From positions 14,722 through 78,721 of the forward strand of contig CANRFO010000008.1 in assembly GCA_947629925.1 (NCBI GenBank): a stretch of DNA of 64,000 nucleotides. The letters are read 5' to 3'. Of this stretch, positions 10,135-46,199 are shown one piece after another. Every line of letters begins with the position of its first letter. Within the stretch, counting starts at the first letter, position 1. Origin of the DNA: an uncultured Ruminiclostridium sp. (GTDB taxonomy: Bacteria; Bacillota; Clostridia; Oscillospirales; Ruminococcaceae). Made by a program: the position numbers and the translations under genes. The notes below the pieces were generated by a model. The model saw nothing but the letters and a program-made list of their open reading frames with translations. It was not told the origin of the DNA and ran no database searches.

Positions 10135-12510
10135 ATGCTAACATTCAGAAGAAAGCTGCTGGCAGCGCTTCTTGCGGCAACGATAGCGTTAAGCTCAGGT
10201 ATCGTATGGTCTGAAAACGCCGACGACACCGAACCCGCCGCGGAAGAAGCAGCCGAAGGCGGTCAGGAAGCGGAAGCTCCCGCCAATGACGCCGAAGGCA
10301 GCGGCGAAGAGGAGGAAGCTCCCGTTACCGAAGAGGAGGCGCTTGCCGCCATGACGGTATATGCTGAGGTCGATAACCTGAAGCTGTACGTCAACGAGGA
10401 GACCGCGATCTTCGCAGTTGAAAATACCGACGACGGATATATCTGGTGGTCAACTCCATACGATTATGAGAGCGACCCTATCGCAGGAAACGTACAGAAG
10501 CAGCTTATGGCTTCTGCAGTTTCCTTTAAGCCTATGGATGTGGAAAACGGTACTCTGCTCAATACCACCACATTCTCCTATGAAGGCTCGATCAAGAAAA
10601 AGGACTTCACCCTCCAGAAGATAGACAACGGCTTCAGACTTGATATGAATATTGCGTCAAACAATATTTCCATTCCCATCACCGTTGCTCTTGAACCCGG
10701 CGGAAGCGTTATCGCAAAGGTGCTTACCGATGAGATAAACGAATGGGTGATCGACGATCACGAGCTTCTCAAGGAATACAAACTGATAACGCTGAACTTC
10801 CTTCAGTCCTTCGGCGCAGGCAGAGCGGACGAGGACGGATATATGCTGATACCTGACGGTTCGGGCGCCGCTATCAATTTCAACAACGGAAAGACCTCGA
10901 CTCAGGTTTATCAGAGACCTATATACGGAAAAGACCTTGCGGTGAGCAAGACCTCCGCCGATCCCAAGACTGAGGATATTTACCTTCCTGTTCTCGGTAT
11001 CGTAAAGGATAACGACAACGGCGACGACGCCATGCTGGCGGTAGTTACCGAAGGCGACGCTTATGCTCAGATAAACGCTTCGGTAAGCGGTCAGGCTACC
11101 ACGTCAATAAACAGCGCATGGTTCAGCTTCGACTTCCGCGCGGTCGACCGTTACACTATCGGTACGAAAAAGCCTCTGGACGTTTTCCAGGCAGGCGATA
11201 TAAGGATAGACAGCATTGCGGTTCGTTACTACATAATGGCAAAGGACGAAATAAACGTCGCTGACCTTGCCGACACTTACCGCAACTACCTTATAAATGA
11301 AAAGGGGCTGCAAAAGCAGTCGATGGACGATTCAAACGCTCTTTATCTTACCACCATGGGCGGTACGATACTGAAACAGTCCGTTCTCGGCTTCCCCGTT
11401 GATATGCAGACCGTTGCCACCTCTTATGAGCAGGCTCAGGATATAATCAGTCAGCTCAACGGATTTGGCGTAGACGAAATGATCATCATTTACAACGACT
11501 TCAACGACAACGGCGTTACAGGAAAGATCTCCAACGGCGTGAACTATTCGGGAAAGCTTGGCGGAAAGAACGCATTCAATGACCTTTACGGATACATAAA
11601 GGAAAATAACTACGTTCTTTATCCCAGCATCGACATAATGGAATATGTGAGAAGCGGCTACGGTTATTCCTTCACGCTGAACAGCTCAAAGCGCATAACC
11701 AACGCTTACGCTACTCAGACAGCCTTCGAGCTTGCCTACGGTCAGCCCGATACAGACGTAAAGCCCACCTGGACGATACTTTCGCCTTACTACTGGCCCG
11801 ACCTGTTCAACAAGATCGTAAAATCCTTTAACGATGAGGGAATAGATACGATCTCACTGAATCAGGCTACCAGCGTTCTTTACAGCGACTTCGGCAGAAA
11901 GAACTTTGACGGCAAGGATCAGTTCGTTCGCGGCGACGCCATGAAGATACTCATTGACGGCTACAAACAGCTCAACGACGCAGGCATCTCCATGATCGCA
12001 CAGGAATGCAACGCTTACGCCCTGCCTTATGTCAAGGCGATAACCAACGTTCCTATGTACAGCTCGAACTACGACCTGTTCGACTATGACGTTCCTTTCT
12101 ACCAGATGGTAATCCACGGTTATATCCCATACAGCTCCAAGCCTATAAACGCAAGCTCCAATGCCGACGAGCTGCTGCTGCTCTCCCTGATGACAGGCGC
12201 AGGCGTTCACTATGAGCTTATGTACAATACCCCCGGCGAGTTCTCCGACAGCGAATACGACAAGTATTTCTACGCGAACTACTCAGGCTGGCTTGAAAAA
12301 GCTGCTGAGGATTACAAGCTGCTGAACGACATCATTTCCTCTTTCAGCACGCAGACTATCACAAAGTATGAGATCAAGGACAACAAGGTATACTCAGTCA
12401 CCTATTCTGACGGGACTGAGATAGAGGTAGACATAAATAACCTTACCTACACTGTAAACGGGCAGGAACACAGTCTTCCCGATAATCAACTGAAAGGAGA
12501 GGAAAACTGA
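10135..12510 (+). CDS. Secreted DUF5696-like protein
   Basis: Signal peptide, acidic linker, LYVNEETAIFAV/GYIWWSTP, GYMLIPDGSGAAINFNNGK, VPFYQMVIHGYIPY motifs typical of this cluster. Confidence 0.65.
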   Translation: MLTFRRKLLAALLAATIALSSGIVWSENADDTEPAAEEAAEGGQEAEAPANDAEGSGEEEEAPVTEEEALAAMTVYAEVDNLKLYVNEETAIFAVENTDDGYIWWSTPYDYESDPIAGNVQKQLMASAVSFKPMDVENGTLLNTTTFSYEGSIKKKDFTLQKIDNGFRLDMNIASNNISIPITVALEPGGSVIAKVLTDEINEWVIDDHELLKEYKLITLNFLQSFGAGRADEDGYMLIPDGSGAAINFNNGKTSTQVYQRPIYGKDLAVSKTSADPKTEDIYLPVLGIVKDNDNGDDAMLAVVTEGDAYAQINASVSGQATTSINSAWFSFDFRAVDRYTIGTKKPLDVFQAGDIRIDSIAVRYYIMAKDEINVADLADTYRNYLINEKGLQKQSMDDSNALYLTTMGGTILKQSVLGFPVDMQTVATSYEQAQDIISQLNGFGVDEMIIIYNDFNDNGVTGKISNGVNYSGKLGGKNAFNDLYGYIKENNYVLYPSIDIMEYVRSGYGYSFTLNSSKRITNAYATQTAFELAYGQPDTDVKPTWTILSPYYWPDLFNKIVKSFNDEGIDTISLNQATSVLYSDFGRKNFDGKDQFVRGDAMKILIDGYKQLNDAGISMIAQECNAYALPYVKAITNVPMYSSNYDLFDYDVPFYQMVIHGYIPYSSKPINASSNADELLLLSLMTGAGVHYELMYNTPGEFSDSEYDKYFYANYSGWLEKAAEDYKLLNDIISSFSTQTITKYEIKDNKVYSVTYSDGTEIEVDINNLTYTVNGQEHSLPDNQLKGEEN

Positions 12511-13670
12511 TGGCACCGCTTAATGAAAAAGAAAAAATGTCAGAAGAAGCTGCTGAAGTTACCGAGCAGGCTGTTGAAGCAGTAGAAACTGCCGAAGCGA
12601 CCGAGCAGGCTGTCGAGGCGGTAGAAGCTGCCGAAACAGAAGCAGTTGAAGCTGTAGGGCAGGACGCAGCCGCTGCCGTTGCAGAAAACGACGGCTACGC
12701 TAAACGCGGAGGCGGAAAAAAGCCCGATCAGAACAAAAAGACGCGCATTTCCTATGAGCGCAAAAAGAGGCTTTACGGCTACGGATTTATCATGCTGTGG
12801 CTTCTGGGAACTATTTACATGTTCATCATACCTATGGTAGAATCCATGAGATATTCCCTTTCCCATACCGAAATGGCAAGCGCCAGCGACTATATGACCT
12901 ATCCCGGCATGACAGGACCCGGTATTTACTGCGAATGGAACAACTTCGGCAACTACTATGACGAGTTCAACACCGACCAGAACTATGTGCCGAACCTTAT
13001 AGAATCGCTTAGCGCGATGCCCGGCGACACATTCATGATACTGGTATTCAGCTTGTTCATAGCTTTGCTCCTCAGCCAGAACTTCAAAGGCAGAGGTCTT
13101 GCCAGAGCGATATTCTTCATACCTGTTCTTGTTGCGACAGGACCTGTCCTGTCGGTAATCAACGGCGATATGGGAAGCCAGGGCATAGGCGACGCTTCAC
13201 AGTTCAGCTCATTGTTTGAGGTGGACATGGTAGACTCCTTCCTTGAGTTCATGGGCTTCGCAAACATAAGCCAGTCACTTGCCGACCAGCTTGGTCAGAT
13301 AGCCAGCGGTCTGTTCAACCTGATATGGCGCTGCGGTATCCAGACGATAATCTTCCTGTCAGCTTTGCAGCAGATCTCCACCTCCGCCAAGGAAGCGGCG
13401 CAGATGGAAGGCGCAACAGGCTGGGAATTCTTCTGGAAGATAACCTTCCCCACCATCAGCCCGATGATCCTTGTAAACCTGATCTATACCGTAATCGACT
13501 GCTTCATAGACTCGGCTAACCCTGTCATGAGCCAGGTTATGGATAAGGCTTCATCATGGGAATACGGCATAAGCGCTGCGATGGCGTGGACATACTTCCT
13601 TATTGTCGGTATCGCTCTCGGTATCATATCGGCGATCGTATCCAAGTTTATATTCTATCAGGTAGATTAA
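12510..13670 (+). CDS. Carbohydrate ABC permease with acidic N-terminal extension
   Basis: EAA loop AKEAAQMEGATGWEFFWKITFP; E/A-rich N-terminus containing a 39-bp tandem duplication. Confidence 0.85.
   Translation: MAPLNEKEKMSEEAAEVTEQAVEAVETAEATEQAVEAVEAAETEAVEAVGQDAAAAVAENDGYAKRGGGKKPDQNKKTRISYERKKRLYGYGFIMLWLLGTIYMFIIPMVESMRYSLSHTEMASASDYMTYPGMTGPGIYCEWNNFGNYYDEFNTDQNYVPNLIESLSAMPGDTFMILVFSLFIALLLSQNFKGRGLARAIFFIPVLVATGPVLSVINGDMGSQGIGDASQFSSLFEVDMVDSFLEFMGFANISQSLADQLGQIASGLFNLIWRCGIQTIIFLSALQQISTSAKEAAQMEGATGWEFFWKITFPTISPMILVNLIYTVIDCFIDSANPVMSQVMDKASSWEYGISAAMAWTYFLIVGIALGIISAIVSKFIFYQVD
12561..12638 (+). repeat. 39-bp imperfect tandem duplication (TEQAVEAVE-AE) inside the permease N-terminus
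   Basis: accgagcaggctgttgaagcagtagaaactgccgaagcg / accgagcaggctgtcgaggcggtagaagctgccgaaaca. Confidence 0.75.
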
Positions 13671-22383: not shown

Positions 22384-22839
22384 TTATTTTTCTGCGGCGA
22401 ACCTGTCCCTCTGCTCAACGGCAAGACGGTCGCAGCGCTCGTTTTCCGCGTGGCCTGCGTGACCTTTTATCCAGCTGAACCTGACCTCGTGTATTTCAAG
22501 AAGCTTCAGCAGCCTTTCCCACAGATCCTTATTCAGCGCAGGCTTCTTGTCGCTTTTTATCCAGTTGTTTCTTTGCCAGCTTTTCGCCCAGCCCTTTTCA
22601 ATACCGTCCACAACATATTTTGAATCGGTCTGAAGAATTACTTTGCAAGGATATTTAAGCGCTTCAAGCCCCGCGATGACCCCTGAAAGCTCCATGCGGT
22701 TGTTGGTGGTGGCCGCTTCGCCGCCGAAAAGCTCCTTTTCACGTCCGTCACAGCGGAGTATCACGCCGTATCCGCCCGGGCCGGGATTTCCTGAGCAGGC
22801 GCCGTCTGAGAAAATATAAACAGTCTTTTTTTCAGGCAT
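22384..22839 (-). CDS. rnhA: Ribonuclease HI
   Basis: [31 protein letters not shown], KNxDLW-like [23 protein letters not shown]. Confidence 0.97.
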
Positions 22840-25234
22840 CTTGCTGTCCTTTCTTTATAAAGCCGAGGAATTTGTGGAATATTTTTCTTATAACATCCGC
22901 CGCTTTTGCGAGGAAGTTTATGATAGGCTCCGCCGCCTTTTCAAGCAGCAGCATCACAACAGCTCCTCCCACAAAAATTATCACCGCGGCAATAACGCTG
23001 TATAAGCCGATAGGCTTCAGACCGAATACAGAAGGCGCTGCAAGAGACGCTCCCGCAAATACGGCGATAAGCGCTGCAAGAAGCCCTGCCTTCCACGCTT
23101 TCATAGGCTTCATTATGCGAAACAGAGCGAAAAATCCCACCGCCGCCACGGTATAAAATGTAAGGGTAGACATTCCGTCCATGGGAAGGTCGGTATATTC
23201 CGACACAAGCACCGACGCTATGGCGCAGAACGCCACGGCTGCTCCCCTCGGAAAGGCAAGCTTGAAGATATTCCGTATAAAGCTGCCTTTTATTATGTCG
23301 GTGTTCGGCTCCAGCGCAAGGAAAAATCCGGGTATCCCTATGGTGGTGACGCTTATAAGGGTGAGCTGTATAGGCTGGAACGGATAAGGAAGCGGGAGGA
23401 ACACGAATATAAGCGCCAGCAGGAACGAATATATCGTTTTTGTAAGGAACAAGGTCCCGCTTCGCTGAATGTTGTTTACAGAGCGGCGGCCCTCAGCTAC
23501 GATCTTAGGCATAGAGGCAAAGTTGCTGTCCAGAAGCACAAGATTGGAAACGCTCCTTGCGGCGTCGCTCCCCGACTGCATAGCAATTGAGCAGTCCGCC
23601 TCTTTAAGCGCCAGAACGTCGTTTACGCCGTCGCCTGTCATTCCTACGGTGTGGCCCTGCTTTTTCAGTGCCTTTACAATAGCAAGCTTTTTGTCGGGGG
23701 TAACTCTTCCGAAAACGGAGTATTTTTTCACCGCCTCGTCGATCTCGTCAACTGACAGCAAAGAAGCGTCCACCGCCATCTCAGCGTTTTTTACCCCCGC
23801 TCTTCCCGCTATCCTTGAAACGGTCACAGGATTGTCCCCTGAGATTATTTTTATATCCACCCCTTGCTTCTCGAAAAATTCAAGCGTCTGCGGCGCTTCC
23901 TTTCTGATAATGTCACCGATAAAGATAAGGGCGGCGGGGACAATGCCTTCGGGAAGCTCATGGCCTGCAAGCCTGTTTTCAGAGTACGCCGCCAGCAATA
24001 CTCTCACACCCTCGCTCTGAGCCGCTTCGCACTGTTCCTTTACCAAAGGATAATTCTCTTTCAGCACAAATTCAGGCGCGCCCAGTATGACGCAGCCTTT
24101 TTCAAAGCCTGCGCCGCTCCATTTTCTCGCAGATGAAAACGGGCAGGTAAAGAGCGCCGACGCATTCCCTCCGCTCCAGCGGTCTTTTACGGCGTTCATC
24201 GTGGGGTTATCGTCGCTCATGCAGGAAGCAAACGCTTCCATAGCCCTGTCCAGAGGAAAATCATCTTTTAAGAGCCGCGTATCCTCCACCTGCATTATTC
24301 CTTCGGTTATCGTTCCCGTTTTGTCAAGGCAAAGGGTGTCGACTCTCGCCAGCGTTTCCGAACAATACATATCCTGCGCCAGAGTTTTGTGAGAGGCAAG
24401 GCGCAGTACGCTCACAGCCATGACCACGCTTGCCAGAAGATAAAGTCCTTCGGGTATCATTCCGATAAGCGCCGCCACCGTGCTGACCACCGCTCGGTCA
24501 AGGCTTTGCCCCGACAAAAGGATAGAGTTTATGAAAAGCCCGACAGCCATCGGCACGATGCATACGGCTATCACTTTTATTATCCTGTCCAAGGACTTCA
24601 GCATAACGCTGTTTTTCTTTTTGATGTATTTTGCGCCTGAGGTTATCTTTGAAGCAAAGTTATCCTGTCCCACGCGAACGACCTGCGCCTTGACGTGTCC
24701 GCTCACCACAAAGCTGCCTGATAAAAGCTCGTCCCCCTCCTGCTTTAAAACGGGGTCGCTTTCCCCTGTGATAAGGCTCTCGTTCACCTCGCACTCGCCC
24801 TGCAAAAGAACGCAGTCGGCGCAGATCTGCCGCCCTGAGGAGAGCAGGACCACGTCTCCCAGCACTATCTCCTCCATAGTTATCTGAACGGATCGCCCGT
24901 CTCTTAAGACCGTGACCTTGGGGGCGGAGATGAGGCTGAGCTTGTCTATCGTTTTTTTCGCCCTTATTTCCTGCACTATACCTATGACGGTGTTGCAGAT
25001 TATAACGCCCAGAAAAAGGCAGTTCTTGAACGACCCTGTAAGCAGTACCAAAACGCCCAGCACTACGTTCACAAAGTTAAAGAAGGTGAATACGTTAGAG
25101 CGGATTATCTCGCTTACGCTTTTGGTGGGAGTATCGGTGTCGCCGTTTATTTTTCCCTCGGCAGCCAGCCTTGCAGCCTCCTGCGAGGATAAGCCGTTTT
25201 CAATAAGCTCGTCTTTTTCCGCCGTGACGCCCAC
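22832..25234 (-). CDS. Cation-translocating P-type ATPase (CtpE-like)
   Basis: [20 protein letters not shown] phosphorylation motif, [17 protein letters not shown]; substrate not assignable. Confidence 0.92.
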
Positions 25235-25301
25235 CGCCTTTCGTTTTGAAATTCTGCATTAATTAAAATGTTTTCCTTTTTTAGAAGGTTGAGGTAAAAA
25301 A

Positions 25302-25441
25302 TCCTCTTTAAGCCGTTTGAGGTTATTATAACATAAAGAGAGCTTTTGCGAAGCAAATGCGATTCCTCTTAAACGTTAAAATGTTCTCAAACATCAAAAT
25401 AAATCTATTCCTCTTTAAGCTGTTTGAGGTTATTATAACAC
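25302..25441 (-). repeat. ~108-bp promoter-hairpin repeat, about 1.3 copies (same family as the 44075-44624 array)
   Basis: tcctctttaagccgtttgaggttattataacataaagagagcttttgcgaagcaaatgcgattcctcttaaacgttaaaatgttctcaaacatc... nearly identical to the 44 kb units; period 107 bp. Confidence 0.9.
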
Positions 25442-25482
25442 AAAAACCCCGATTTGTAAACAAAAACGGCGGGAAACCTTCA

Positions 25483-25528
25483 GCCGCGCCTACATGGGAA
25501 AACACAGATCTTCCTATGTCAGGGCGGC
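25483..25528. repeat. REP-like repeat, family B, nested in a terminator loop
   Basis: gccgcgcctacatgggaaaacacagatcttcctatgtcagggcggc enclosed by the stem aaaaacggcgggaaa...tttcccgccgcttttt (25462-25545). Confidence 0.65.
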
Positions 25529-25551
25529 TTTTCCCGCCGCTTTTTCATCTG

Positions 25552-37662: not shown

Positions 37663-40600
37663 TTATTTTACATTAAGAAGCTCCGAATACTCGTCTTTTA
37701 TCTCTACGGAAACAGGCTCGCTCGCTTGTGCGGCGTTCTTCACCGCGTGGGACAGCATGAGCTTGATACGGTTTATCTGATTTACCTCCGACGCGCCGGG
37801 GTCGTAGTCCACTGCGATTATGTTAGACAGGGGATTTCTGCGGCGAAGCTCGCCTATAACACCCTTGCCCGTAACGTGATTCGGCAGGCAGGCGAAAGGC
37901 TGCATACAAATGATGTTGTTTACTCCGCTGTGCATAAGCTCAACCATCTCGGCGGTAAGGAACCAGCCCTCTCCCGCGATATTGCCTGTGGAAACTATGC
38001 CGTCAACCAGCTTCCTCATTTCGGAAACCTTCATAAAGCTGCCGAATTTCGTTCCCTTTACCGCCTCAAGATACGGCTTTTCAAGCCATTCAAGCATTGA
38101 TATCAGCTTGTTTTGCAGGAAATATCTCGTCCCCGAAACGGTGAGAAGCTCACGCCTTGTGTTGGCGTGGTCGAGTATGAAGTAGATAAATCCCATAAGG
38201 TCTGGGACTACCGCTTCCGCTCCCTCAGACTCCACAAGGTCAACGACAAAATTGTTCGCAACGGGGTGGTATTTTACCAGAATTTCCCCTACGATACCGA
38301 CTCTGGGCTTTTGCAGGTCGAATACGGGCAGAGCGTCAAAGTCCTTTACGATAGCGGCGATGTTCCTGCCGTATTCCTTGAAGCTCAGCTTTTTAAGGGA
38401 CGTTTTCAGCTTTTCGTTCCATTCCTTATACAGTCTGTCGGCGCTGCCCTTTTCCACCTCGTACGGTCTTACCCTGTACAGACAGCGGCTTAGTACATCG
38501 CCGTAAACCACCGCCATAAGCGCTCTCACTACCAGCGCAGGGGTGTACTTGAAGCCGGGGTTTTTCTCCATTCCCACCAGATTTATTGAAATAATGGGGA
38601 CTTGGGGATAGCCACCCTCTTTAAGCGCTTTCTTTATCATTCCCACATAGTTTGTGGCACGGCAGGCGCCGCCTGTCTGGGTTATCATAACGGAAGTGTT
38701 GTTCACGTCGTATTTTCCGCTGTTCAGCGCCGCCATAAGAGAGCCGACTGTGAGTATCGTGGGATAGCAGGCGTCGTTGTTGACGTATTTCAGTCCCTCG
38801 TCCACTATCTCCTTAGTATAGTCTTTCAGAATAACGACATTATATCCCGAATATCTGAACGCCTGCTCCAAAAGCTCAAAATGTATCGGCGACATCTGGG
38901 GAGCAAGTATAGTATGGGTCTTTTTGCTTTCCTTTGTGAAATAAGGCTGACGGTGATAGCCGTCATATTTTTCCTCGCTGTGATAGCCGTCGCGGCGGCG
39001 CTCCTCGGAAACTGAGATAAGGGAACGCAGGCGTATCCTCGCCGCTCCAAGGTTGTTCACCTCGTCTATCTTCAGAACGGTGTAAAGCCGTCCGTAGCCC
39101 TGCATTATCTCCTGAACCTGGTCGGTGGTGATGGCGTCAAGACCGCAGCCGAAACTGTTCAGCTGCACAAGCTCAAGATATTCACGCTCGCCCACGACGG
39201 CGGCGGAGTTGTACAGCCTGTTGTGATACATCCACTGGTCGACCACACGGATAGGTCTTGCCAGCTTGTCAACGCCTAGATGTGCCACGCTGTCCTCAGT
39301 CAGCACCGCAAAGCCGTATCCGTTTATCATTTCGGGAATGCCGTGATTTATCTCAGGGTCAAGGTGATAGGGTCTGCCTGCCAGAACGATACCTTTTTGT
39401 CCCGTTTCCTCCAGCATTTTCAGAACTTCCTCGCCCTTTGCACGAATGTCCGCCTTGAACCTTGCGTCCTCCTCATAGGCGGCGGCAAGGGCAAGTCCTA
39501 TCTCCTCGCCGTGTATGCCAAGGGGCAGAAATTCCTCCGTCAGCCTTTCCGCCATTCTCTCCTTGTCGTAAATGGGGAGGAACGGGTTCATAAAGCTTAT
39601 CTCTTTATCTCTAAGCTGAGGGATAGAATTTTTGATGACCTCGCTGTAAGTCGCAACGACAGGGCAGTTGTAGTGATTGTCCCCCTTGCCGCCGCAGTCC
39701 ATTTCATAGGGCAGGGCGGGGAAGAATATCATATCCGCTCCGTTTTCGATGAGCCATACCACGTGTCCGTGGGACAGCTTTGCGGGATAGCACACTGATT
39801 CGCTGGGCATAGTTTCAATTCCCAGCTCGTAAATTTCACGGGAGGAATCAGGTGACAGCAGAACGCTGTAACCCAGCTTTGTGAACAGCGTGAACCAGAA
39901 CGGGTAATTCTCATACATACCCAGAACTCTCGGCAGTCCCACAACGCCCCGCTTTGCCTCCTCCTTGGGAGTGGGGGTATATTCAAACAATCTCTTGTAC
40001 TTATAATCAAACAGGTTGGGCAGGTCAGATTTTTTCGTGCCAAGCCCTGCGCCTCGCTCACAGCGGTTGTTGGTGATGAATCTTGTGCCGTCGCCGAATT
40101 TGCTGATGGTGAGCAGGCAGTTGTTGCTGCACCGCCCGCACCTTGCGGTGGATTTTGTGATAGAGAAATTCTCCAGCTTGTCGGCGGTGGCTATCGTCGA
40201 GCCCTCGCCGTCGTCCCTGTTCATGGCGATAAGGGCGCTGCCGTAAGCTCCCATAAGTCCCGCCTTGTCGGGGCGCACCGCCTCACGCCCGCAGGTAAGC
40301 TCGAACGCTCTCAGCACGGAGTTGTTCATAAACGTTCCGCCCTGAACAATTATCTTCTCCCCCATATCCTTGGGGTCACGAATTTTTATTACCTTGAACA
40401 GCGCATTTTTAACAACTGAATAGCTTAACCCCGCCGAAATGTCCGCAACGCTTGCGCCCTCTTTCTGCGCCTGCTTTACACGGCTGTTCATAAACACCGT
40501 ACAGCGGGAGCCGAGATCAACGGGGTGCTCGGCGGTAAGTCCCAGCTGCGCAAATTCAGCGCTGGTCATTCCCAGAGCGGAGGCAAAATTCTCAATAAAG

Positions 40601-41940
40601 CTGCCGCAGCCGCTGGAGCAAGCCTCGTTCAGCAGAATGCTCTGTATCTCCCCGTTCTTTACGCGGATACACTTCATATCCTGCCCGCCGATGTCAAGGA
40701 TAAACTCGACACCGGGTAACATTCTCTCCGCCGCCTTATAGTGCGCCATAGTTTCAATTTCGCCAAAGTCGGTTTTCAGCGCCGCCTTTATCAAATGCTC
40801 GCCATAGCCTGTGGCGGTGGCTTTCGCTATGTATGCGCCCTCAGGCATAAGGCTGTAAATCTCCTGCAATATCCCGATGACGGACTTCAGCGGGTCGCCC
40901 ATATTGTTGTTGTAGTGGGAGTAGAGTATCTCTCCCTTTTCGTTTATCAGCGCAGCCTTTGTGGTGGTGGAGCCTGCGTCTATGCCGAGATAGCATTTTC
41001 CCTTGTGGGAAGAAAGGTCAGCGGTGGGGATAACGGCTTTTGCGTGTCTTTCCATAAACTCCGCTTTGTCCGCCTCGTCCTTGAACAGGGGAGCAAGTCT
41101 TTCCACCTCGTGAGTTTCAACGCTTGAAAGGTTGTCTATCCTGCTTTTCAGCTCTTCAAGGGAAATTTCCCCTCTGCTGTCGGACAGCGCCGCGCCCATA
41201 GCAACGAACAGGTTTGCGTCCTCAGGGAAAATAATGTCCTCAGGCTGTAAATTCAAGGTGACGATAAATCTTTTTCTCAGCTCGGAAAGATAGTGGAGCG
41301 GTCCGCCTAAAAACGCCACCTTGCCCCTTATAGGCTTTCCGCAGGCAAGCCCGCTGATAGTCTGATTGACTACCGACTGAAAGACCGAAGCCGCAACGTC
41401 GCTGCGCTTTGCGCCGTCGTTTAACAGCGGCTGTATGTCAGACTTTGCAAACACACCGCAGCGTGACGCTATGGGATAGATAGTCTCCGCGTCCTTTGCA
41501 AGCTCGTTCAGCCCTGTTATATCTGTGTTCAGCAGCGCCGCCATCTGGTCGATGAACGCTCCCGTGCCGCCTGCGCAGGTGCCGTTCATACGCTGTTCTA
41601 TGCCGCCTCTTAAATAGGTTATCTTTGCGTCCTCGCCGCCAAGCTCGATAGCAACGTCAGTTTCGGGTATCAGCTTTTCAATGGCTACCGCTCCTGCGGT
41701 AACTTCCTGAACAAAAGGAATACCCAGCCATTTTGCGGCGTTTATGCCGCCGCTTCCCGTAACTGCGGCGGTGGCGTTTTCGCCCTTTATTTTTTCTATG
41801 CCCTCCAGCAGCACCTCCGCCAAAGTTTTCTTTATGTCGGAATAGTGCCGCTGATATTTTTTATGTACTGTCTTTCCGTTATCGTCGAGAATGACGATTT
41901 TTACCGTTGTAGAGCCAACGTCAAGCCCGATATGGAACAT
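37663..41940 (-). CDS. CoA-substrate-specific enzyme activase / 2-hydroxyacyl-CoA dehydratase-family fusion
   Basis: Two ASKHA activase domains ([20 protein letters not shown]; [20 protein letters not shown]) followed by DUF2229/HgdB-like regions ([28 protein letters not shown]). Confidence 0.85.
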
Positions 41941-43074: not shown

Positions 43075-43995
43075 TCAATAAAGCGGAGTGTAAAATTCCT
43101 GCGCCCAGTAATAGCCGAAGCCCTGATTCGTGTCGTTGGGCAGGTAAATACAGCCTACTCCAAGATAGCGGTACTCGCTGCTGAGAATGGCTTCACGGTG
43201 TCCCATGGTACTTCCCATCCACGCGTTTACCACTTCCTGCGGCGTTCTCTGACCTGCGGCGATATTTTCGCCTGTTGCGCTGTAATCCAGACCCACGTCA
43301 TAGATAACGCTGTAACTGTTCCGTCCGTCGGGGCGGGTATGACCGTAATGCCCCGATATTTCCTTTGCGCGTATAACGGCGGCATTGGTGAGCGCGTCAA
43401 GCTTCTCATAAGCGGGAAGCCCATATTCCGCTCTTATCTGATTTACAAGGACAAATACCTGCTCGGCAAAATCTCCGCTCTGAGCAGGAGGCTGAGTTTC
43501 GGGAGCCTTTGTGGTGGTGGTAGTCGTAACAGGCGGCGCCGCAGTTGTGGTGGTAGTAACTGGCGGAGCTGTTGTAGTGGTAGTAACAGGCGGAGCAGTT
43601 GTTGTGGTAGTTATCGGCGGAGCCGTTGTAGTCGTAGTGGTAACAGGCGGCGCTGTTGTGGTAGTGGTGGTAACAGATGAAGTCGTTGTATCCTCAGACG
43701 GAACGGTGGTTATAGATTTAGGCACCGTTGTCATTATATTGGCATATACTTTCGGAGTGGTTTCGGACGTAGTTTTATCTGTGCTTTCAAGCTCCGCGGC
43801 TTCAGTTTCCTCCTCGGCGGAGACTTCGGCAGCGGGAGCTTCTTGCGCATCCTCGGTTTCCGCCGCGACCGTTACCGTGCCTGCGGCGCTGAGCCGCGAA
43901 GCGTCTTCAGGATCGCGCCCGCTGTTTGAACAGCCTGACAAAAATAAAGCCGCTGCGGTGAAAAAAGAAAGAAAGGCTTTTGCTTTTCGTGTCAT
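43075..43995 (-). CDS. CAP (SCP-like) domain lipoprotein with Thr/Pro-rich stalk
   Basis: Start MTRKAK after AAGGAG; lipobox LFLSGC; about 5 x TTTTT(T)APPV; CAP motifs LVNQIRAEYGL, HTRPDG, GENIAAGQ, WMGSTMGHREAIL, YWAQEF. Confidence 0.85.
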   Translation of the reverse strand: MTRKAKAFLSFFTAAALFLSGCSNSGRDPEDASRLSAAGTVTVAAETEDAQEAPAAEVSAEEETEAAELESTDKTTSETTPKVYANIMTTVPKSITTVPSEDTTTSSVTTTTTTAPPVTTTTTTAPPITTTTTAPPVTTTTTAPPVTTTTTAAPPVTTTTTTKAPETQPPAQSGDFAEQVFVLVNQIRAEYGLPAYEKLDALTNAAVIRAKEISGHYGHTRPDGRNSYSVIYDVGLDYSATGENIAAGQRTPQEVVNAWMGSTMGHREAILSSEYRYLGVGCIYLPNDTNQGFGYYWAQEFYTPLY

Positions 43996-44074: not shown

Positions 44075-44624
44075 TTATTATAACATAAGAAGAGCATTTT
44101 GCCTCGCAAAATGCGATTCCTCTTAAATGTTAAAATGTTCTCAAACATCAGGATAATATATTCCTATTTAATCCGTTTGAGGTTATTATAACATAAGAAG
44201 AGCTTTTGCGAAGCAAATGCGATTCCTCTTAAATGTTAAAATGTTCTCAAACATCAGGATAATATATTCCTATTTAATCCGTTTGAGGTTATTATAACAT
44301 AAAAAGAGCTTTTTGCGAAGCAAAATGCGATTCCTCTGAACCGTTACAATGTTCTCAAACATTAAAATAAAATTATTCCTCTTTCCGCTGTTTGAGGTTA
44401 TTATAACATAAGGAGAGCATTTTGCCTCGCAAAATGCGATTCCTCTGGATCGTTAAAATGACCTCAAACGTTAAAATAATATATTCCTATTTAATCCGTT
44501 TGAGGTTATTATAACATAAGAAGAGCTTTTTGCGAAGCAAAATGCGATTCCTCTGGATCGTTAAAATGACCTCAAACGTTAAAATAATATATTCCTCTTT
44601 AAGCTGTTTGAGGTTATTATAACA
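44075..44624 (-). repeat. Tandem array of five ~108-bp units plus a terminal partial unit
   Basis: ttattataaca recurs at 44075, 44183, 44289, 44398, 44506 and 44614; each unit is a long imperfect hairpin tipped by gcgaagc or gcctcgc and carries TGTTATAAT on the minus strand. Confidence 0.92.
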
Positions 44625-44714
44625 CATTTATCGCGGTAACTTCAAGTAAAATATTGGAAAAAGCAAAAAATCGGCGATTTACCCGAAAAAATTGAGCAAA
44701 TTGCCGATTATAGA

Positions 44715-46199
44715 TCAAAGATTAGTGTAGCCCAGCAGTGCCTTGTCTACTTCCTTTGCGCACTCGCGCCCCTCTTTTATCGCCCATACCACCAGTGACT
44801 GCCCTCTGTGCATATCGCCGCAGGTAAAGACTTTTGGAACGTTTGTGGAATATTTTCCCGCTTCTGTCTTGACGTTGCTCCTGCCGTCAGTTTCAACGCC
44901 GAAAGCCTTTGTGACATAGCTCTCGCTGCCAAGAAATCCCGCCGCTATAAGCACCAGATTAGCAGGAACGGTGTATTCGCTGTCCTTTATCTCTTTCATT
45001 ACCGTTCTGCCCGTCTTTTTATCAACGGAGGGCTCCAGCTTCACAAGCACAAGCTGTTTCAGATTGCCCCGCTTGTCTTTCACAAATTCCTTCACCGTGG
45101 TCTGATAAACTCTCGGGTCTGCGCCGAAAACGGCCGCCGCCTCTTCCTGACCGTAGTCGGTCTTGCACACCCTCGCCCACTGAGGCCAAGGATTGTTTTC
45201 CGCCCTTTCATCGGGGAGCTTCGGCATCATCTCAAGCTGCAAAACGCTTTTTGCACCGTGGCGTACGGAAGTCCCAACGCAGTCGTTGCCCGTGTCGCCG
45301 CCGCCGATTATAACCACGTGCTTATTTTTTGCGCTGATGAATGTCCCCTCCGCAAGGTCCTTGTCCAACAGGCTCTTTGTGGTGGAGGTGAGAAAATCCA
45401 CCGCAAAGTAAATTCCCTTTGCGTCGCGTCCCTCTGCTGAAATATCACGGGGCTGTGACGCTCCGCAGGCGAGGATAACTATGTCGAAATCCTTCAGCAG
45501 CTTTTCCGCCTCAACGTTTTCACCCACGTTTTTCCCCGTTTCAAAGAGGACGCCCTCTTCTTTCATTATCTCTATGCGCCGTTCTATGATGTGCTTTTCA
45601 AGCTTCATATTGGGTATACCGTACATCAGCAGACCTCCCACCCTGTCGCTCCTCTCAAAGACAGTGACAGAATGTCCCCGCTGATTGAGCTGGTCCGCCG
45701 CCGCAAGCCCCGACGGGCCTGAGCCTATGACGGCTATCTTCTTGCCCGTTCTGACAGCGGGGATATGAGCCTTTGCTATACCCTGCTCGTAGGCGTATTC
45801 AACGATGCCGTATTCGTTCTGCTTTACCGTTACGGGGTCATCGTGAACGCCGCAGGTGCAGGCAGCCTCGCAAAGCGCAGGGCATACTCTACCTGTAAAT
45901 TCGGGGAAATTGTTGGTCTTTCTCAGACGGTTGTACGCCTGCTCCCAGTTTCCTGTGTAAATAAGGTCGTTCCATTCGGGGATAAGGTTGTTCAGCGGGC
46001 AGCCGCTTACCATTCCGCCTATCACCATTCCCGACTGGCAGAAAGGAACGCCGCACGCCATACATCTTGCGCCCTGCTCCTGCTGTTTTTCACGGGACAG
46101 GGGGATATGGAACTCGTCAAAATTTTCTATTCGCTCCTCTGGAGCGACAGCCTCCGCGTTCTCACGCTGAAATTCAAGAAATCCCGTAGGCTTTCCCAT
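44715..46199 (-). CDS. gltD: Glutamate synthase small subunit
   Basis: MGKPTGF, RCMACGVPFC, GCPLNNLIPEWN, GRVCPALCE, GSGPSGL, GGGDTGNDC, GDMHRGQSLVVWAI. Confidence 0.97.
   Translation of the reverse strand: MGKPTGFLEFQRENAEAVAPEERIENFDEFHIPLSREKQQEQGARCMACGVPFCQSGMVIGGMVSGCPLNNLIPEWNDLIYTGNWEQAYNRLRKTNNFPEFTGRVCPALCEAACTCGVHDDPVTVKQNEYGIVEYAYEQGIAKAHIPAVRTGKKIAVIGSGPSGLAAADQLNQRGHSVTVFERSDRVGGLLMYGIPNMKLEKHIIERRIEIMKEEGVLFETGKNVGENVEAEKLLKDFDIVILACGASQPRDISAEGRDAKGIYFAVDFLTSTTKSLLDKDLAEGTFISAKNKHVVIIGGGDTGNDCVGTSVRHGAKSVLQLEMMPKLPDERAENNPWPQWARVCKTDYGQEEAAAVFGADPRVYQTTVKEFVKDKRGNLKQLVLVKLEPSVDKKTGRTVMKEIKDSEYTVPANLVLIAAGFLGSESYVTKAFGVETDGRSNVKTEAGKYSTNVPKVFTCGDMHRGQSLVVWAIKEGRECAKEVDKALLGYTNL

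Follow-up and report, generated by a model that had tools for sequence, protein, structure and literature searches.

Correia repeat-enclosed elements (CREE) of Neisseria are ~100-150-bp non-coding intergenic repeats with inverted-repeat ends that fold as a hairpin in transcripts, create or carry -10-type promoters that drive neighbouring genes, and are polymorphic between strains (PMC2649163; Siddique et al. 2011, as cited in PMC3575422). Correia elements are single units bounded by 26-bp terminal inverted repeats with a TA duplication, and they insert in either orientation. BOX elements of Streptococcus pneumoniae, boxA-(boxB)n-boxC, and E. coli BIME-2 arrays of REPs are modular non-coding repeats in which an internal module is tandemly reiterated a variable number of times. 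They have strong secondary structure, are dispersed in intergenic regions and affect neighbouring gene expression or mRNA stability, but they carry no conserved promoter box, are not orientation-locked upstream of genes (REPs are mostly in 3' UTRs) and have units of only 35-45 bp. Background on REP and RAYT is given in PMC3333891 and PMC3733652. Putative mobile promoters are defined operationally as sequences of more than 80% identity over more than 50 nt upstream of non-homologous genes within one genome (Matus-Garcia, Nijveen and van Passel 2012; PMC3575422). This is a statistical category with no anatomy or mechanism. It sampled -150 to -50 relative to the translation start, a window its authors say mostly misses the -10 box, and no tandem, -10-bracketed, structured module was described there. 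Tandem sibling sRNA genes, such as LhrC1-4 of Listeria and the csRNAs of streptococci, are head-to-tail ~100-nt units that each have their own promoter, hairpins and SD or anti-SD-like motifs. Sibling sRNAs occupy one or a few fixed loci, have strong terminators and a conserved seed, and are not known to be inserted in the promoters of dozens of unrelated genes. The 5' mRNA stabilisers of Firmicutes, such as STAB-SD of cryIIIA and the 5'-terminal stem-loops of the aprE and ermC leaders, are single, gene-specific leaders in the examples described.

The locus analyzed here is in a 64,000-nucleotide stretch (the window) of contig CANRFO010000008.1, assembly GCA_947629925.1, from an uncultured Ruminiclostridium sp. 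Five head-to-tail copies of a ~108-bp non-coding module, each with a predicted promoter box and a leader predicted to fold, sit exactly inside the promoter of a secreted-protein gene. The module family is scattered in front of dozens of unrelated genes in many gut Clostridia and looks like an undescribed kind of travelling promoter. Conceptually it falls under putative mobile promoters and resembles Correia and BOX elements. In contrast to Correia elements, the units are in head-to-tail arrays bracketed by a 9-11-bp extended -10 box, are mostly oriented towards the downstream gene and are found in Firmicutes. The module shares with the 5' stabilisers an SD-like AAAGAGGAA about 15 nt from the predicted 5' end or, in other subfamilies, a 5'-terminal stem or four-way junction, and a stabilising role is inferred from this similarity alone.

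Anatomy of the array

Tandem Repeats Finder reported a repeat with a period of 108, 5.1 copies and 88% matches. The motif GTTTGAGG starts at 44175, 44281, 44390, 44498 and 44606, which gives the periods of 108, 106, 109, 108 and 108 bp listed in the first-pass annotation. Each unit folds into a long imperfect hairpin, with z = -4.4 to -7.4 for the window units on either strand and fold energies of -17 to -35 kcal/mol on either strand. The tips are GCATTTTGC-CTC-GCAAAATGC or GC(T)TTTTGC-GAA-GC(A)AAATGC, and paired one-base indels in the two tip arms keep the stem. Every unit reads TGTTATAAT on the minus strand, and the array is bracketed by TTATTATAACA, which is TGTTATAATAA on the minus strand. 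An alignment of the units has 87% mean column identity with mosaic variants. A terminal 19-mer of the repeat occurs 7 times exactly in the window (9 matches at up to 3 mismatches) against 0 expected. These results confirm that the array described in the first-pass annotation is real (Table 1).

Table 1. Features of the two repeat loci, in window positions.
Feature	Position	Strand	Description
Whole array	44075..44624	-	Five units (44075-44182, 44183-44288, 44289-44397, 44398-44505, 44506-44613) plus the 11-bp terminal TTATTATAACA (44614-44624)
Predicted complete outer sigma-A-type promoter	44616..44645	-	-35 TTGAAG (44645-44640) in unique DNA, 18-nt spacer, TG-extended -10 TGTTATAAT (44624-44616) belonging to the repeat; promoter scan 10/12 with TG
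Five internal or gene-proximal extended -10 boxes	44077..44516	-	TGTTATAAT at 44085-44077, 44193-44185, 44299-44291, 44408-44400 and 44516-44508; in units with the GAA tip the hairpin tip supplies a -35-like TTCGCA at 16-17 nt
Short stem (example)	44140..44182	-	Begins 3 nt after the -10 (minus strand CCTCAAAC ... GTTTGAG) and encloses the 28-nt A/T-rich B segment with an SD-like A(G/T)AGGAA; also at 44246-44288, 44354-44397, 44463-44505 and 44571-44613
Long imperfect hairpin, A domain (example)	44175..44252	.	Others at 44281-44360, 44390-44469 and 44498-44577, with a 5'-truncated one at 44075-44146; tips at 44094-44114, 44202-44220, 44308-44328, 44417-44437 and 44525-44545
Downstream gene	43075..43995	-	CAP/SCP-domain lipoprotein with a Thr/Pro-rich linker (Pfam CAP E=2e-15); RBS and ATG about 80 nt after the last -10 box
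Intrinsic terminator of the upstream gltD-like gene (44715-46199)	44660..44712	-	Just upstream of the outer -35; AATCGGCAATTT...AAATCGCCGATT followed by a T-run on the minus strand
Second locus	25315..25440	-	One full unit (hairpin 25315-25392, B 25393-25421) plus the terminal 19-mer; -10 boxes at 25333-25325 and 25440-25432
Predicted outer promoter of the second locus	25432..25460	-	TTTACA-17-TATAAT with TG, reading into the P-type ATPase gene (22832-25234, minus strand; Pfam E1-E2_ATPase); promoter scan 11/12
Decayed gene-proximal remnant of a further unit	25276..25314	-	TTGAGGT-aaaaaa-tcctctttaagcc with the long hairpin deleted; other strains have a 9-nt replacement (contigs of sequencing runs X5 and X6 skip 25274-25317 with TTCAGATGC in its place)

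Short-read contigs break inside the repeat, which raised the possibility of an assembly artefact. Contigs from two other samples, one extending from the right flank and one from the CAP gene, overlap in units 2-4 and together reproduce all five units with their distinguishing variants. A CRISPR-like array was considered with it, but all segments of the unit are repeated at 83-93% identity, the 28-nt segments between hairpins are near-identical and there are no unique spacers. Both readings are very unlikely. An integron cassette array is also not supported: CTCAAAC and GTTTGAG do not fit the RYYYAAC and GTTRRRY boxes of attC, the copies are dispersed at many promoters rather than in one array, and no ORF of 40 aa or more that is not explained by a flanking gene or an in-repeat reading frame lies between the flanking genes of the 44-kb array.

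Coding potential was examined in the units. An SD-like motif plus ATG gives MFENI... peptides of 8-30 aa in some units, but the ATG is missing in units 4 and 5 and tip indels of 13, 15 or 16 nt shift the frame. A peptide or type I toxin was rejected on these grounds. Rfam searches at the gathering threshold gave no hits in the window or in 12 related loci, and E-value searches of the array and of a four-way-junction unit gave only sub-threshold hits, mostly miRNA precursors. The 19-mer was absent from viral contigs, and blastn found no plasmid hit. Literature searches with sequence strings and topics found no description. The statement in the first-pass annotation that no described family has this organisation agrees with these searches. 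A Frpo-like single-strand promoter and a dif/Xer-like site were considered by eye and dropped because the -35/-10 spacing in the hairpin and the 28-bp dif pattern do not fit.

A dispersed family at extended -10 boxes

The family was found in over 100 loci of Oscillospirales and other Clostridia genomes in arrays of 1-8 units. The exact 19-mer occurs in 41 loci and the gapped core pattern in 94 loci, mostly in Oscillospirales MAGs and isolates (Ruthenibacterium lactatiformans, Yeguia hominis). One mouse-gut MAG has 30 or more arrays of the window's subfamily, and unit depth is 15-20x the flank in the window's own population. Units range from 77 to 160 bp. On the promoter strand the shared core is TGnTATAAT-AA-CCTCAAAC, a variable structured insert, then GTTTGAGAACATT and a second structured insert. 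A Neobacillus/Pseudoneobacillus repeat shares the core but lacks the -10 box; about 0.5 random matches to the pattern are expected, so this match may be chance and is not used as evidence. The unit of the second locus is 84-91% identical over ~107 nt to units of the 44-kb array, and the downstream genes are a P-type ATPase and a CAP-domain lipoprotein. This fits the operational definition of putative mobile promoters, as does sharing across genera and families with no Rfam match. Units within an array are 91-92% identical against 85% between loci, which fits local amplification of the module. The greater likeness within arrays, together with hairpins that favour slippage, would also be expected of a purely local tandem duplication by replication slippage with no mobility and no function. 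This explanation is contradicted by the dispersal data, by the sharing of the core across many genera, and by covariation and promoter-signature conservation that indicate selection, and is very unlikely.

Promoter-like signals are conserved across the family. The 3 nt before TATAAT are TGG, TGT, TGA or TGC in 157 of 172 units (91%), and these 3 nt were outside the search pattern. Unique flanking DNA supplies a -35 at 16-18 nt in 15/26 junctions with at least 4/6 matches against 15% at control offsets, and in 8/26 with at least 5/6 matches against 2.5% (p~1e-7). Internal -35 elements are weak (TTCGCA or GAGGCA), and some arrays do not end at a -10 box, as at one locus examined (L043). The downstream gene is co-oriented in 23/24 loci and in 57/75 of a larger set, where the remaining 18 of 75 were not co-oriented in a crude ORF tally. 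The upstream gene shows little or no preference (12/10 and 47/31, respectively). The downstream genes are functionally unrelated, and a regulon or riboswitch-like leader was rejected because they have no common function.

Two comparisons of empty and filled sites place the block between a pre-existing extended -10 box and its +1. At the 44-kb locus, sequencing run X8, from a related strain, carries an allele joining the left flank to the right flank through a single TATTATAACA. At IS200-like tnpA promoters, n = 1, 2+, 3, 5 and 7 units are bracketed by TGGTATAAT in one genome, and n = 0, with TGATATAAT directly followed by the same leader, in another species. A search with the CAP protein found no relative among the species representatives, and exact-protein look-ups gave only contigs that end in the repeat.

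Structure, strand and mobility

The inner stems covary. In other subfamilies the stem next to the -10 encloses a perfect three-hairpin four-way junction, in which 91% of cells are paired and 17/32 pairs have double changes, a result reached by 0/500 shuffles. At least four independent compensated variants of the stem next to the -10 occur elsewhere: CTCAGAC/GTCTGAG, CTCGGGC/GCCCGAG, CTCAAAA/TTTTGAG and CTCACGGTGT/ACACCTGAGAG. The strand on which the stems would act is less certain. Hairpin loops are G..A types (GAA, GCAA, GACA; the GCGAAGC mini-hairpin) on the strand antisense to the promoters, 60 against 9, and the conserved closing stem has two G.U pairs only on that strand. This could point to a functional plus-strand RNA or ssDNA, although transcription-linked C>T drift in unconstrained loops could also produce it. 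G.U against A.C counts in the variable helices (23 against 15) and the MFE of the B domain (13 against 15) were not decisive.

RNA data were searched for transcripts of the units, and only unstranded contigs or irrelevant host single-cell runs were found, so that start sites are predicted from sequence alone. In one true RNA-seq run (X36), contigs cover the array units of one locus (L060) and not its flanks, which is a hint of transcription. The same observation also supports a battery of sibling small RNAs, in which each unit would be an independent gene with an extended -10 promoter, a ~90-nt structured RNA and a leaky intrinsic terminator, and the product would act in trans. It could act through the repeated A(G/T)AGGAA motifs as SD or GGA decoys for ribosomes or a CsrA-like protein or, if the opposite strand is transcribed, through CU-rich anti-SD motifs (UUCCUCUUU), as in LhrC or csRNA-type sRNAs. 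Every unit has a promoter-like site and a tip hairpin followed by a U-rich tail that the scan flags as terminator-like on the minus strand, and there are two GGA/SD-like motifs per unit, one in a predicted loop. However, the terminators are weak, a 133-nt RNA contig spans a unit junction, and the unit interior, including the GGA/CU motifs, is not conserved between subfamilies; only the promoter-proximal core is. Units also sit inside the promoter of a downstream gene and in orientation with it, which a free-standing sRNA gene does not need. The sRNA reading is possible but unlikely as the primary function.

The mobility mechanism was examined by searching for a partner gene. ORFs between back-to-back arrays, a six-frame motif scan for Y1 transposases and all-against-all clustering of 1317 ORFs near arrays showed no enrichment except for generic ABC transporters, and no mobilising enzyme with matching ends was found in about 120 loci. 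An imperfect inverted repeat exists (GTTTGAGGTTATT... / ...AATGTTCTCAAAC), but no IS with these ends was found in the same loci. A MITE would have terminal inverted repeats matching those of a parent IS in the same or related genomes. The flanking direct repeat is always the same extended -10 box (TGnTATAAT(AA)), in contrast to the target-site duplication of fixed length but variable sequence and the either-way insertion of a MITE. The units likewise do not match REP/BIME with RAYT: they are longer than its 20-40-bp palindromes, have no unpaired GTAG or CGTC tag at the unit ends and lie 5' of genes rather than mostly 3', and no Y1 or RAYT gene flanked by units was seen.

A remnant of a single-strand DNA transposon, like a PATE or REP/BIME of the IS200/IS605-RAYT world, was considered as an alternative. 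In this view an HUH (Y1) enzyme would recognise hairpins on the plus strand and insert 3' of TTATTATAACA, the complement of the extended -10. The element also ends with that sequence, which would explain tandem insertion, and promoter activity would be a by-product. Stable GNA/GNRA-type loops and G.T pairs are biased to one strand, and the geometry is hairpin, then 12 nt, then a sharp boundary at the same end in most loci. The left-hand copy of the box can differ from the right-hand one, as expected of a target rather than a duplication (TATATTATCA in X6/X8; TGATATAAT against TGGTATAAT). The position next to a specific sequence also fits a PATE, which inserts 3' of a short specific target without a duplication. 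IS200-like Y1 transposases are present in several carrier genomes and physically linked to arrays in one. However, the LE and RE hairpins of that IS (CCACCGGC..., CCCACCAC...) are unrelated to the unit core, so it looks like a target or carrier. The TG-N-TATAAT conservation pattern and the flank -35 are not explained by a mere target motif, and the variable helices show no clear G.T against A.C asymmetry. This alternative is possible but unlikely.

A proposed mobile promoter-and-leader cassette

The best reading, held with moderate confidence, is that the array is five tandem copies of a promoter-and-5'-leader module from a dispersed, apparently mobile repeat family of gut Oscillospirales and other Clostridia. 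Read on the minus strand, each module would start with a TG-extended -10 box able to recruit sigma-A RNA polymerase with little or no -35, followed by a predicted start about 7 nt downstream at the foot of the short CCTCAAAC/GTTTGAGG stem, which in this subfamily encloses the SD-like AAAGAGGAA. The long imperfect hairpin comes next, and then a U-rich tail running into the next -10 box, so that the hairpin tip and 3' arm would double as the -35 and spacer of the next promoter. Because the block sits between the -10 box and the +1 region, the native -35 would pair with a repeat-borne -10 at the outer edge and a -10 box would remain next to the gene's own leader. The gene would be preceded by n+1 co-directional promoters and a highly structured 5' leader, which is inferred to act as a 5' mRNA stabiliser or leaky insulator. 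In this model copy number rises and falls by recombination or slippage between the 9-11-bp -10 repeats, and new promoters are colonised by a step that depends on identity to the extended -10 box. Microhomology or template switching is thought most likely for this step, and a dedicated enzyme is not excluded. The data establish the repeat family and its anatomy, the conserved promoter signature, the orientation, the stem covariation, the empty and filled sites and the copy-number variation, whereas promoter firing, the transcribed strand, the RNA role of the stems, the effect on expression and the means of spread are inferences.

The first-pass annotation had offered, without choosing, a promoter-targeting miniature element that amplifies in tandem, an array of individually promoted ~100-nt small RNAs, or a copy-number rheostat on downstream expression, and the evidence supports this interpretation only in part. 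The first option is now well supported by the dispersed family at the -10 box of many unrelated promoters in many genomes, the empty and filled alleles and the paralogous IS copies with 1-7 units, although targeting cannot be separated from microhomology-driven copying or from selection for insertions that keep a promoter. The copy-number variation that underlies the rheostat idea is present, and an effect on expression remains a hypothesis. A more far-reaching and tentative possibility, at present unlikely, is a new class of bacterial mobile element that homes to the extended -10 box of sigma-A promoters, inserts between -10 and +1, regenerates its own target and so amplifies in tandem. Such an element would hand any colonised gene, including an IS200 transposase gene, a tunable stack of promoters plus a structured 5' leader, and its core would be recognised by an unidentified enzyme or would exploit promoter melting or replication of the hairpin-forming strand.

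The family breaks short-read assemblies at promoters and generates spurious ORFs, so MAG annotation would benefit from recognising it, and the compact promoter plus structured leader could be a useful expression part for genetically difficult Clostridia. The two cultured carriers, Ruthenibacterium lactatiformans and Yeguia hominis, make the model testable. It would give the statistical notion of mobile promoters a concrete anatomy: a -10-bracketed unit, a covarying 5' stem or four-way junction, and tandem growth. If the modules fire as promoters, many genes of abundant gut Clostridia are driven by a portable cassette whose copy number varies, with observed counts from 0 to 8 units between strains, orthologous loci and paralogous IS copies. 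That would be a simple heritable dial on expression and a route for rapid rewiring of transcription.

Structure and genomic context of the tandem array

Tandem Repeats Finder was used to define the repeat and reports one array with a period of 108, 5.1 copies, and 88% matches. The 19-mer GTTTGAGGTTATTATAACA occurs seven times exactly in the window, five times in the array and twice at the 25.3-kb copy, and none is expected by chance. The array lies between two minus-strand genes, with the intrinsic terminator of a gltD-like gene upstream and the start of a CAP/SCP-domain lipoprotein gene downstream. The 25.3-kb copy lies upstream of a P-type ATPase gene. Each unit folds as a long imperfect hairpin, with z-scores of -4.4 to -7.4 for the array units, and each reads TGTTATAAT on the minus strand. 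A promoter scan calls complete outer promoters at both loci that use unique DNA for the -35, and it also calls internal sites in which the hairpin tip (TTCGCA) serves as a -35. The units differ in a mosaic pattern, and paired single-base indels in the two tip arms preserve the stem. Contigs from two other samples, L120 entering from the right flank and L121 from the CAP gene, overlap in units 2-4 and reproduce all five units. These results show the array is not an assembly artefact. The first-pass annotation described a tandem array of ~108-bp units, each carrying an extended -10 promoter and a long hairpin, and this description is correct in every particular that could be checked.

The gene-proximal end of the 25.3-kb copy is polymorphic. 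A decayed extra unit there has its long hairpin cleanly deleted, and strains in sequencing runs X5 and X6 carry TTCAGATGC instead of these 42 nt. A terminator-like hairpin (GGCGG-CTTTTC-CCGCC followed by GCTTTTTC) is oriented on the plus strand just upstream of the -35 of the 25.3-kb promoter, although both neighboring genes are on the minus strand. It would stop plus-sense transcripts leaving the repeat. Plus-sense terminators also follow arrays in the mouse-gut MAG CAJTTE01, where they are the left end of an insertion sequence (IS). At the 44-kb locus, a tandem repeat inside the CAP-domain lipoprotein gene is a second possible source of length variation.

Coordinates of the repeat loci and associated features (window positions unless a locus is named)
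Feature	Position	Strand	Detail
Tandem array	44075-44624
Second copy (25.3 kb)	25315-25440
Outer promoter of the array	44645-44616	minus	TTGAAG-18-TATAAT
Outer promoter of the 25.3-kb copy	25460-25432	minus	TTTACA-17-TATAAT
gltD-like gene	44715-46199	minus	upstream of the array
CAP/SCP-domain lipoprotein gene	43075-43995	minus	downstream of the array
P-type ATPase gene	22832-25234	minus	downstream of the 25.3-kb copy
Decayed extra unit	25276-25314
Terminator-like hairpin	25523-25538	plus
Tandem repeat in the CAP-domain gene	43517-43676		27/30/54-bp repeat encoding a Thr/Pro-rich linker (TTTTTAPPVTTTT...)
Fusion protein gene	37663-41940	minus	1425 aa; BcrAD_BadFG (activase) and DUF2229 domains, as seen in the annotation of the matching contig L121; unrelated to the array
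Tandem repeat across an ORF junction	12541-12635		39 bp x 2.4 (CAGTAGAAGCTGCCGAAGCGACCGAGCAGGCTGTCGAAG), mostly inside the second of two plus-strand ORFs (10135-12510 and 12510-13670)
IS200-like element	L050:4847-5720	minus	array locus in CAJTTE01
77-bp mini-variant	L010:2090-2215	minus	array locus L010

Distribution and anatomy of the repeat family

The species-representative genome collection was searched to determine the distribution of the repeat. The exact 19-mer is present in 41 stretches, and a gapped core pattern (TGTTCTCAAAC-N26-56-GTTTGAGGTTAT) is present in 94. About a dozen of the 19-mer hits are chance or plain promoters. The rest belong to Oscillospirales and other Clostridia, including the isolates Ruthenibacterium lactatiformans and Yeguia hominis, and they often lie at contig ends as expected of a multicopy repeat. 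CAJTTE01 carries at least 30 arrays of the same subfamily as the window, with periods of 102-104 bp and up to 8 units. Word depth suggests about 15-20 units per genome in the window's own rabbit-gut population and about 7-13 in R. lactatiformans. Searches of viral contigs, plasmids, Rfam, and the literature found nothing.

In the orientation of the window's plus strand, a unit reads GTTTGAGGTTATTATA(A/C)CA, domain A, (C)AATGTTCTCAAAC, domain B, and then the next GTTTGAGG... Only the two junction motifs are conserved between genomes, and A and B are variable. In most genomes B is a perfect four-way junction in which the stem CTCAAAC/GTTTGAG encloses three hairpins with no linker nucleotides. 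In 24 non-redundant sequences, 91% of cells are paired and 17 of 32 pairs show changes on both sides. None of 500 shuffles reaches this, and slid controls pair at 34-51%. In the window's subfamily B is a 28-nt A/T-rich segment whose only conserved feature is TTCCTCT, which reads A(G/T)AGGAA on the promoter strand. A mini-variant of the family with a 77-bp period has B reduced to an 11-nt hairpin (CTCAAAAGCGCAATGTGCGTTTGAG). Domain A is a long closing stem around three hairpins in most genomes, or one long hairpin in the window. The stem next to the -10 box exists in at least four compensated versions: CTCAGAC/GTCTGAG, which alternates with the consensus version inside a single array, CTCGGGC/GCCCGAG, CTCAAAA/TTTTGAG, and CTCACGGTGT/ACACCTGAGAG. 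A different MITE-like repeat in Neobacillus sp. D3-1R and a Pseudoneobacillus MAG (loci L062, L065, L070, L071, L074, L088, L094, L102, and L103) shares the core, whether through common ancestry or coincidence. It reads GCCCCGACAAGCAAATGTTCTCAAAC-hairpin-GTTTGAGGTTATTTGACCTCGAGGGGCTAG, has long outer inverted repeats and no -10 box, and in the loci inspected (L062, L065, and L071) lies just 3' of a gene's stop codon.

Promoter signature, orientation, and insertion point

Four lines of evidence support the minus-strand box as a real promoter element. First, in 172 units found with a pattern that began at TATAAT, the three preceding bases are TGG (89), TGT (36), TGA (29), or TGC (3), and something else in only 15. 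TG is kept and N is free, exactly as in an extended -10. Second, the unrelated flanking DNA at 26 outermost junctions was scored for a TTGACA-like hexamer 16-18 nt upstream. The hexamer scores ≥4/6 in 15 junctions (15% at control offsets) and ≥5/6 in 8 (2.5% at control offsets), with p~1e-7. Third, the gene downstream of the promoter direction is co-oriented in 23 of 24 curated loci and in 57 of 75 in an automated tally, whereas the upstream gene shows little or no such preference (12 against 10 in the curated loci; 47 against 31 in the tally). Fourth, the downstream genes share no function and include an ATPase, a CAP lipoprotein, an amidase, a glycosyltransferase, RecJ, TtcA-like and NadE-like PP-loop enzymes, TsaE, an H+-pyrophosphatase, and a phosphatase, which argues against a regulon-specific leader. 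The array structure, dispersal, anatomy, and promoter conservation together led to the rejection of pure local duplication, a CRISPR array, an integron, a riboswitch, and a coding function.

Empty and filled sites were compared to locate the insertion point. In sequencing run X8, a contig joins a slightly diverged copy of the left flank directly to the right flank through a single TATTATAACA. This is an empty allele keeping a plain promoter (TTGAAG-18-TGTTATAAT). A second comparison came from the finding that six or more arrays in CAJTTE01 share both flanks. The downstream flank encodes an IS200-type Y1 transposase, which is intact in locus L050 (Pfam Y1_Tnp, E=5e-40) and frameshifted in locus L057, and the upstream flank is the left-end hairpin of that IS. 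The element (left-end hairpin CCACCGGC-TCA-GCCGGTGG, 154-aa Y1 transposase, right-end hairpin CCCACCAC-TTCA-GTGGTGGG) is present in at least 6 diverged copies, several of them pseudogenes, at loci L050, L049, L057, L073, L096, and L079 (CAJTTE01) and L001. Each is inserted right after the T-run of an upstream gene's terminator, and each carries 1-7 repeat units in its tnpA promoter. The paralogous copies read left-end hairpin ... TGGTATAAT-[unit]n-TGGTATAAT-agtaagggtttggca ... tnpA, where n is 1, 2+, 3, 5, or 7. A related IS in another species has n = 0, with TGATATAAT followed directly by gaaagtgggtttggca. The block therefore lies precisely between a pre-existing extended -10 box and its +1 region, bracketed by 9-11-bp direct repeats of the box.

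The copy number of the block changes quickly. Loci L013 and L037 are orthologous loci of two species upstream of an N-acetylmuramoyl-L-alanine amidase-like gene (assigned from the IIDPGHGGFDGGA motif only). Both carry the array, with 1.x against 2.x units and species-specific unit sequences, and a conserved flank -35 TTTACAG, which indicates concerted evolution of the repeat within each genome. Units within an array are more alike (91-92%) than units between loci (85%), which indicates local amplification or homogenization. Gene-proximal units tend to be the decayed ones.

Interpretation and relation to other repeats

The folding data contain one feature that does not fit a promoter-and-leader cassette. 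Hairpin loops are overwhelmingly G..A types on the strand antisense to the promoters, 60 against 9, and include GAA, GCAA, GACA, GTAA, and the very stable GCGAAGC motif. The invariant closing stem has two G.U pairs on that strand only. This could mean the folded entity is plus-strand ssDNA, giving an IS200/IS605- or REP-like mechanism with insertion 3' of TTATTATAACA, which would also explain tandem growth and why the gene-side copy of the box can differ from the outer one. Three results count against this reading. The co-resident IS200-like element has unrelated end hairpins, no Y1 gene flanked by units and no other enriched neighbor was found in the loci searched, and the variable helices show no clear wobble asymmetry. 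The loop bias might instead be transcription-associated C>T drift on the non-template strand. Independent small RNAs are possible but poorly supported, because the interior is not conserved between subfamilies and the orientation is locked to the gene.

The functionally closest repeats are the Correia elements of Neisseria, which are promoter-bearing, hairpin-forming, and strain-variable (PMC2649163). The family also satisfies the definition of the operational class of 'putative mobile promoters' (PMC3575422). Architecturally it recalls BOX elements and BIME-2 arrays, where an internal module is reiterated. It fails the defining tests of a MITE, of REP/RAYT, of CRISPR, of integron cassettes, and of every Rfam family. 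The extended -10 box serving as both boundary and repeat, the fixed orientation towards the downstream gene, and the tandem growth inside promoters are not known to have been described for any of these and did not appear in the searches made. The family is placed with the promoter-bearing intergenic repeats, from which these three features set it apart on present evidence. That it is a genuinely new class of -10-homing element is possible but unlikely.

The family is interpreted as a mobile, tandemly amplifying promoter-and-leader cassette. The reading of a promoter-associated miniature element that amplifies in tandem, one of three offered in the first-pass annotation, is supported by the comparative evidence, whereas promoter firing, the RNA role, and the mobility mechanism are inferred. 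Copying by template switching or recombination at the 9-11-bp -10 microhomology, helped by hairpin-induced stalling, is considered the simplest way for units to reach new promoters, and this too is inference. In this view, each unit supplies an extended -10 promoter, a predicted transcript that begins at the foot of the covarying stem, and a second structured domain ending in a U-rich tail that overlaps the next -10 box. The stem encloses a four-way junction or, in the window, an SD-like AAAGAGGAA about 15 nt from the 5' end. The one piece of transcript evidence is weak: a true RNA-seq run has contigs on the array units of locus L060, including one of 133 nt across a unit junction, and none on the flanks. 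5'-Terminal structures and non-translated SD sequences are 5' mRNA stabilizers in Firmicutes, as in the STAB-SD of cryIIIA and the aprE and ermC leaders. The module is therefore inferred to add promoter strength, a protective leader, and perhaps partial termination between units. For the window, the CAP gene would be served by six co-directional promoters and the ATPase gene by two.
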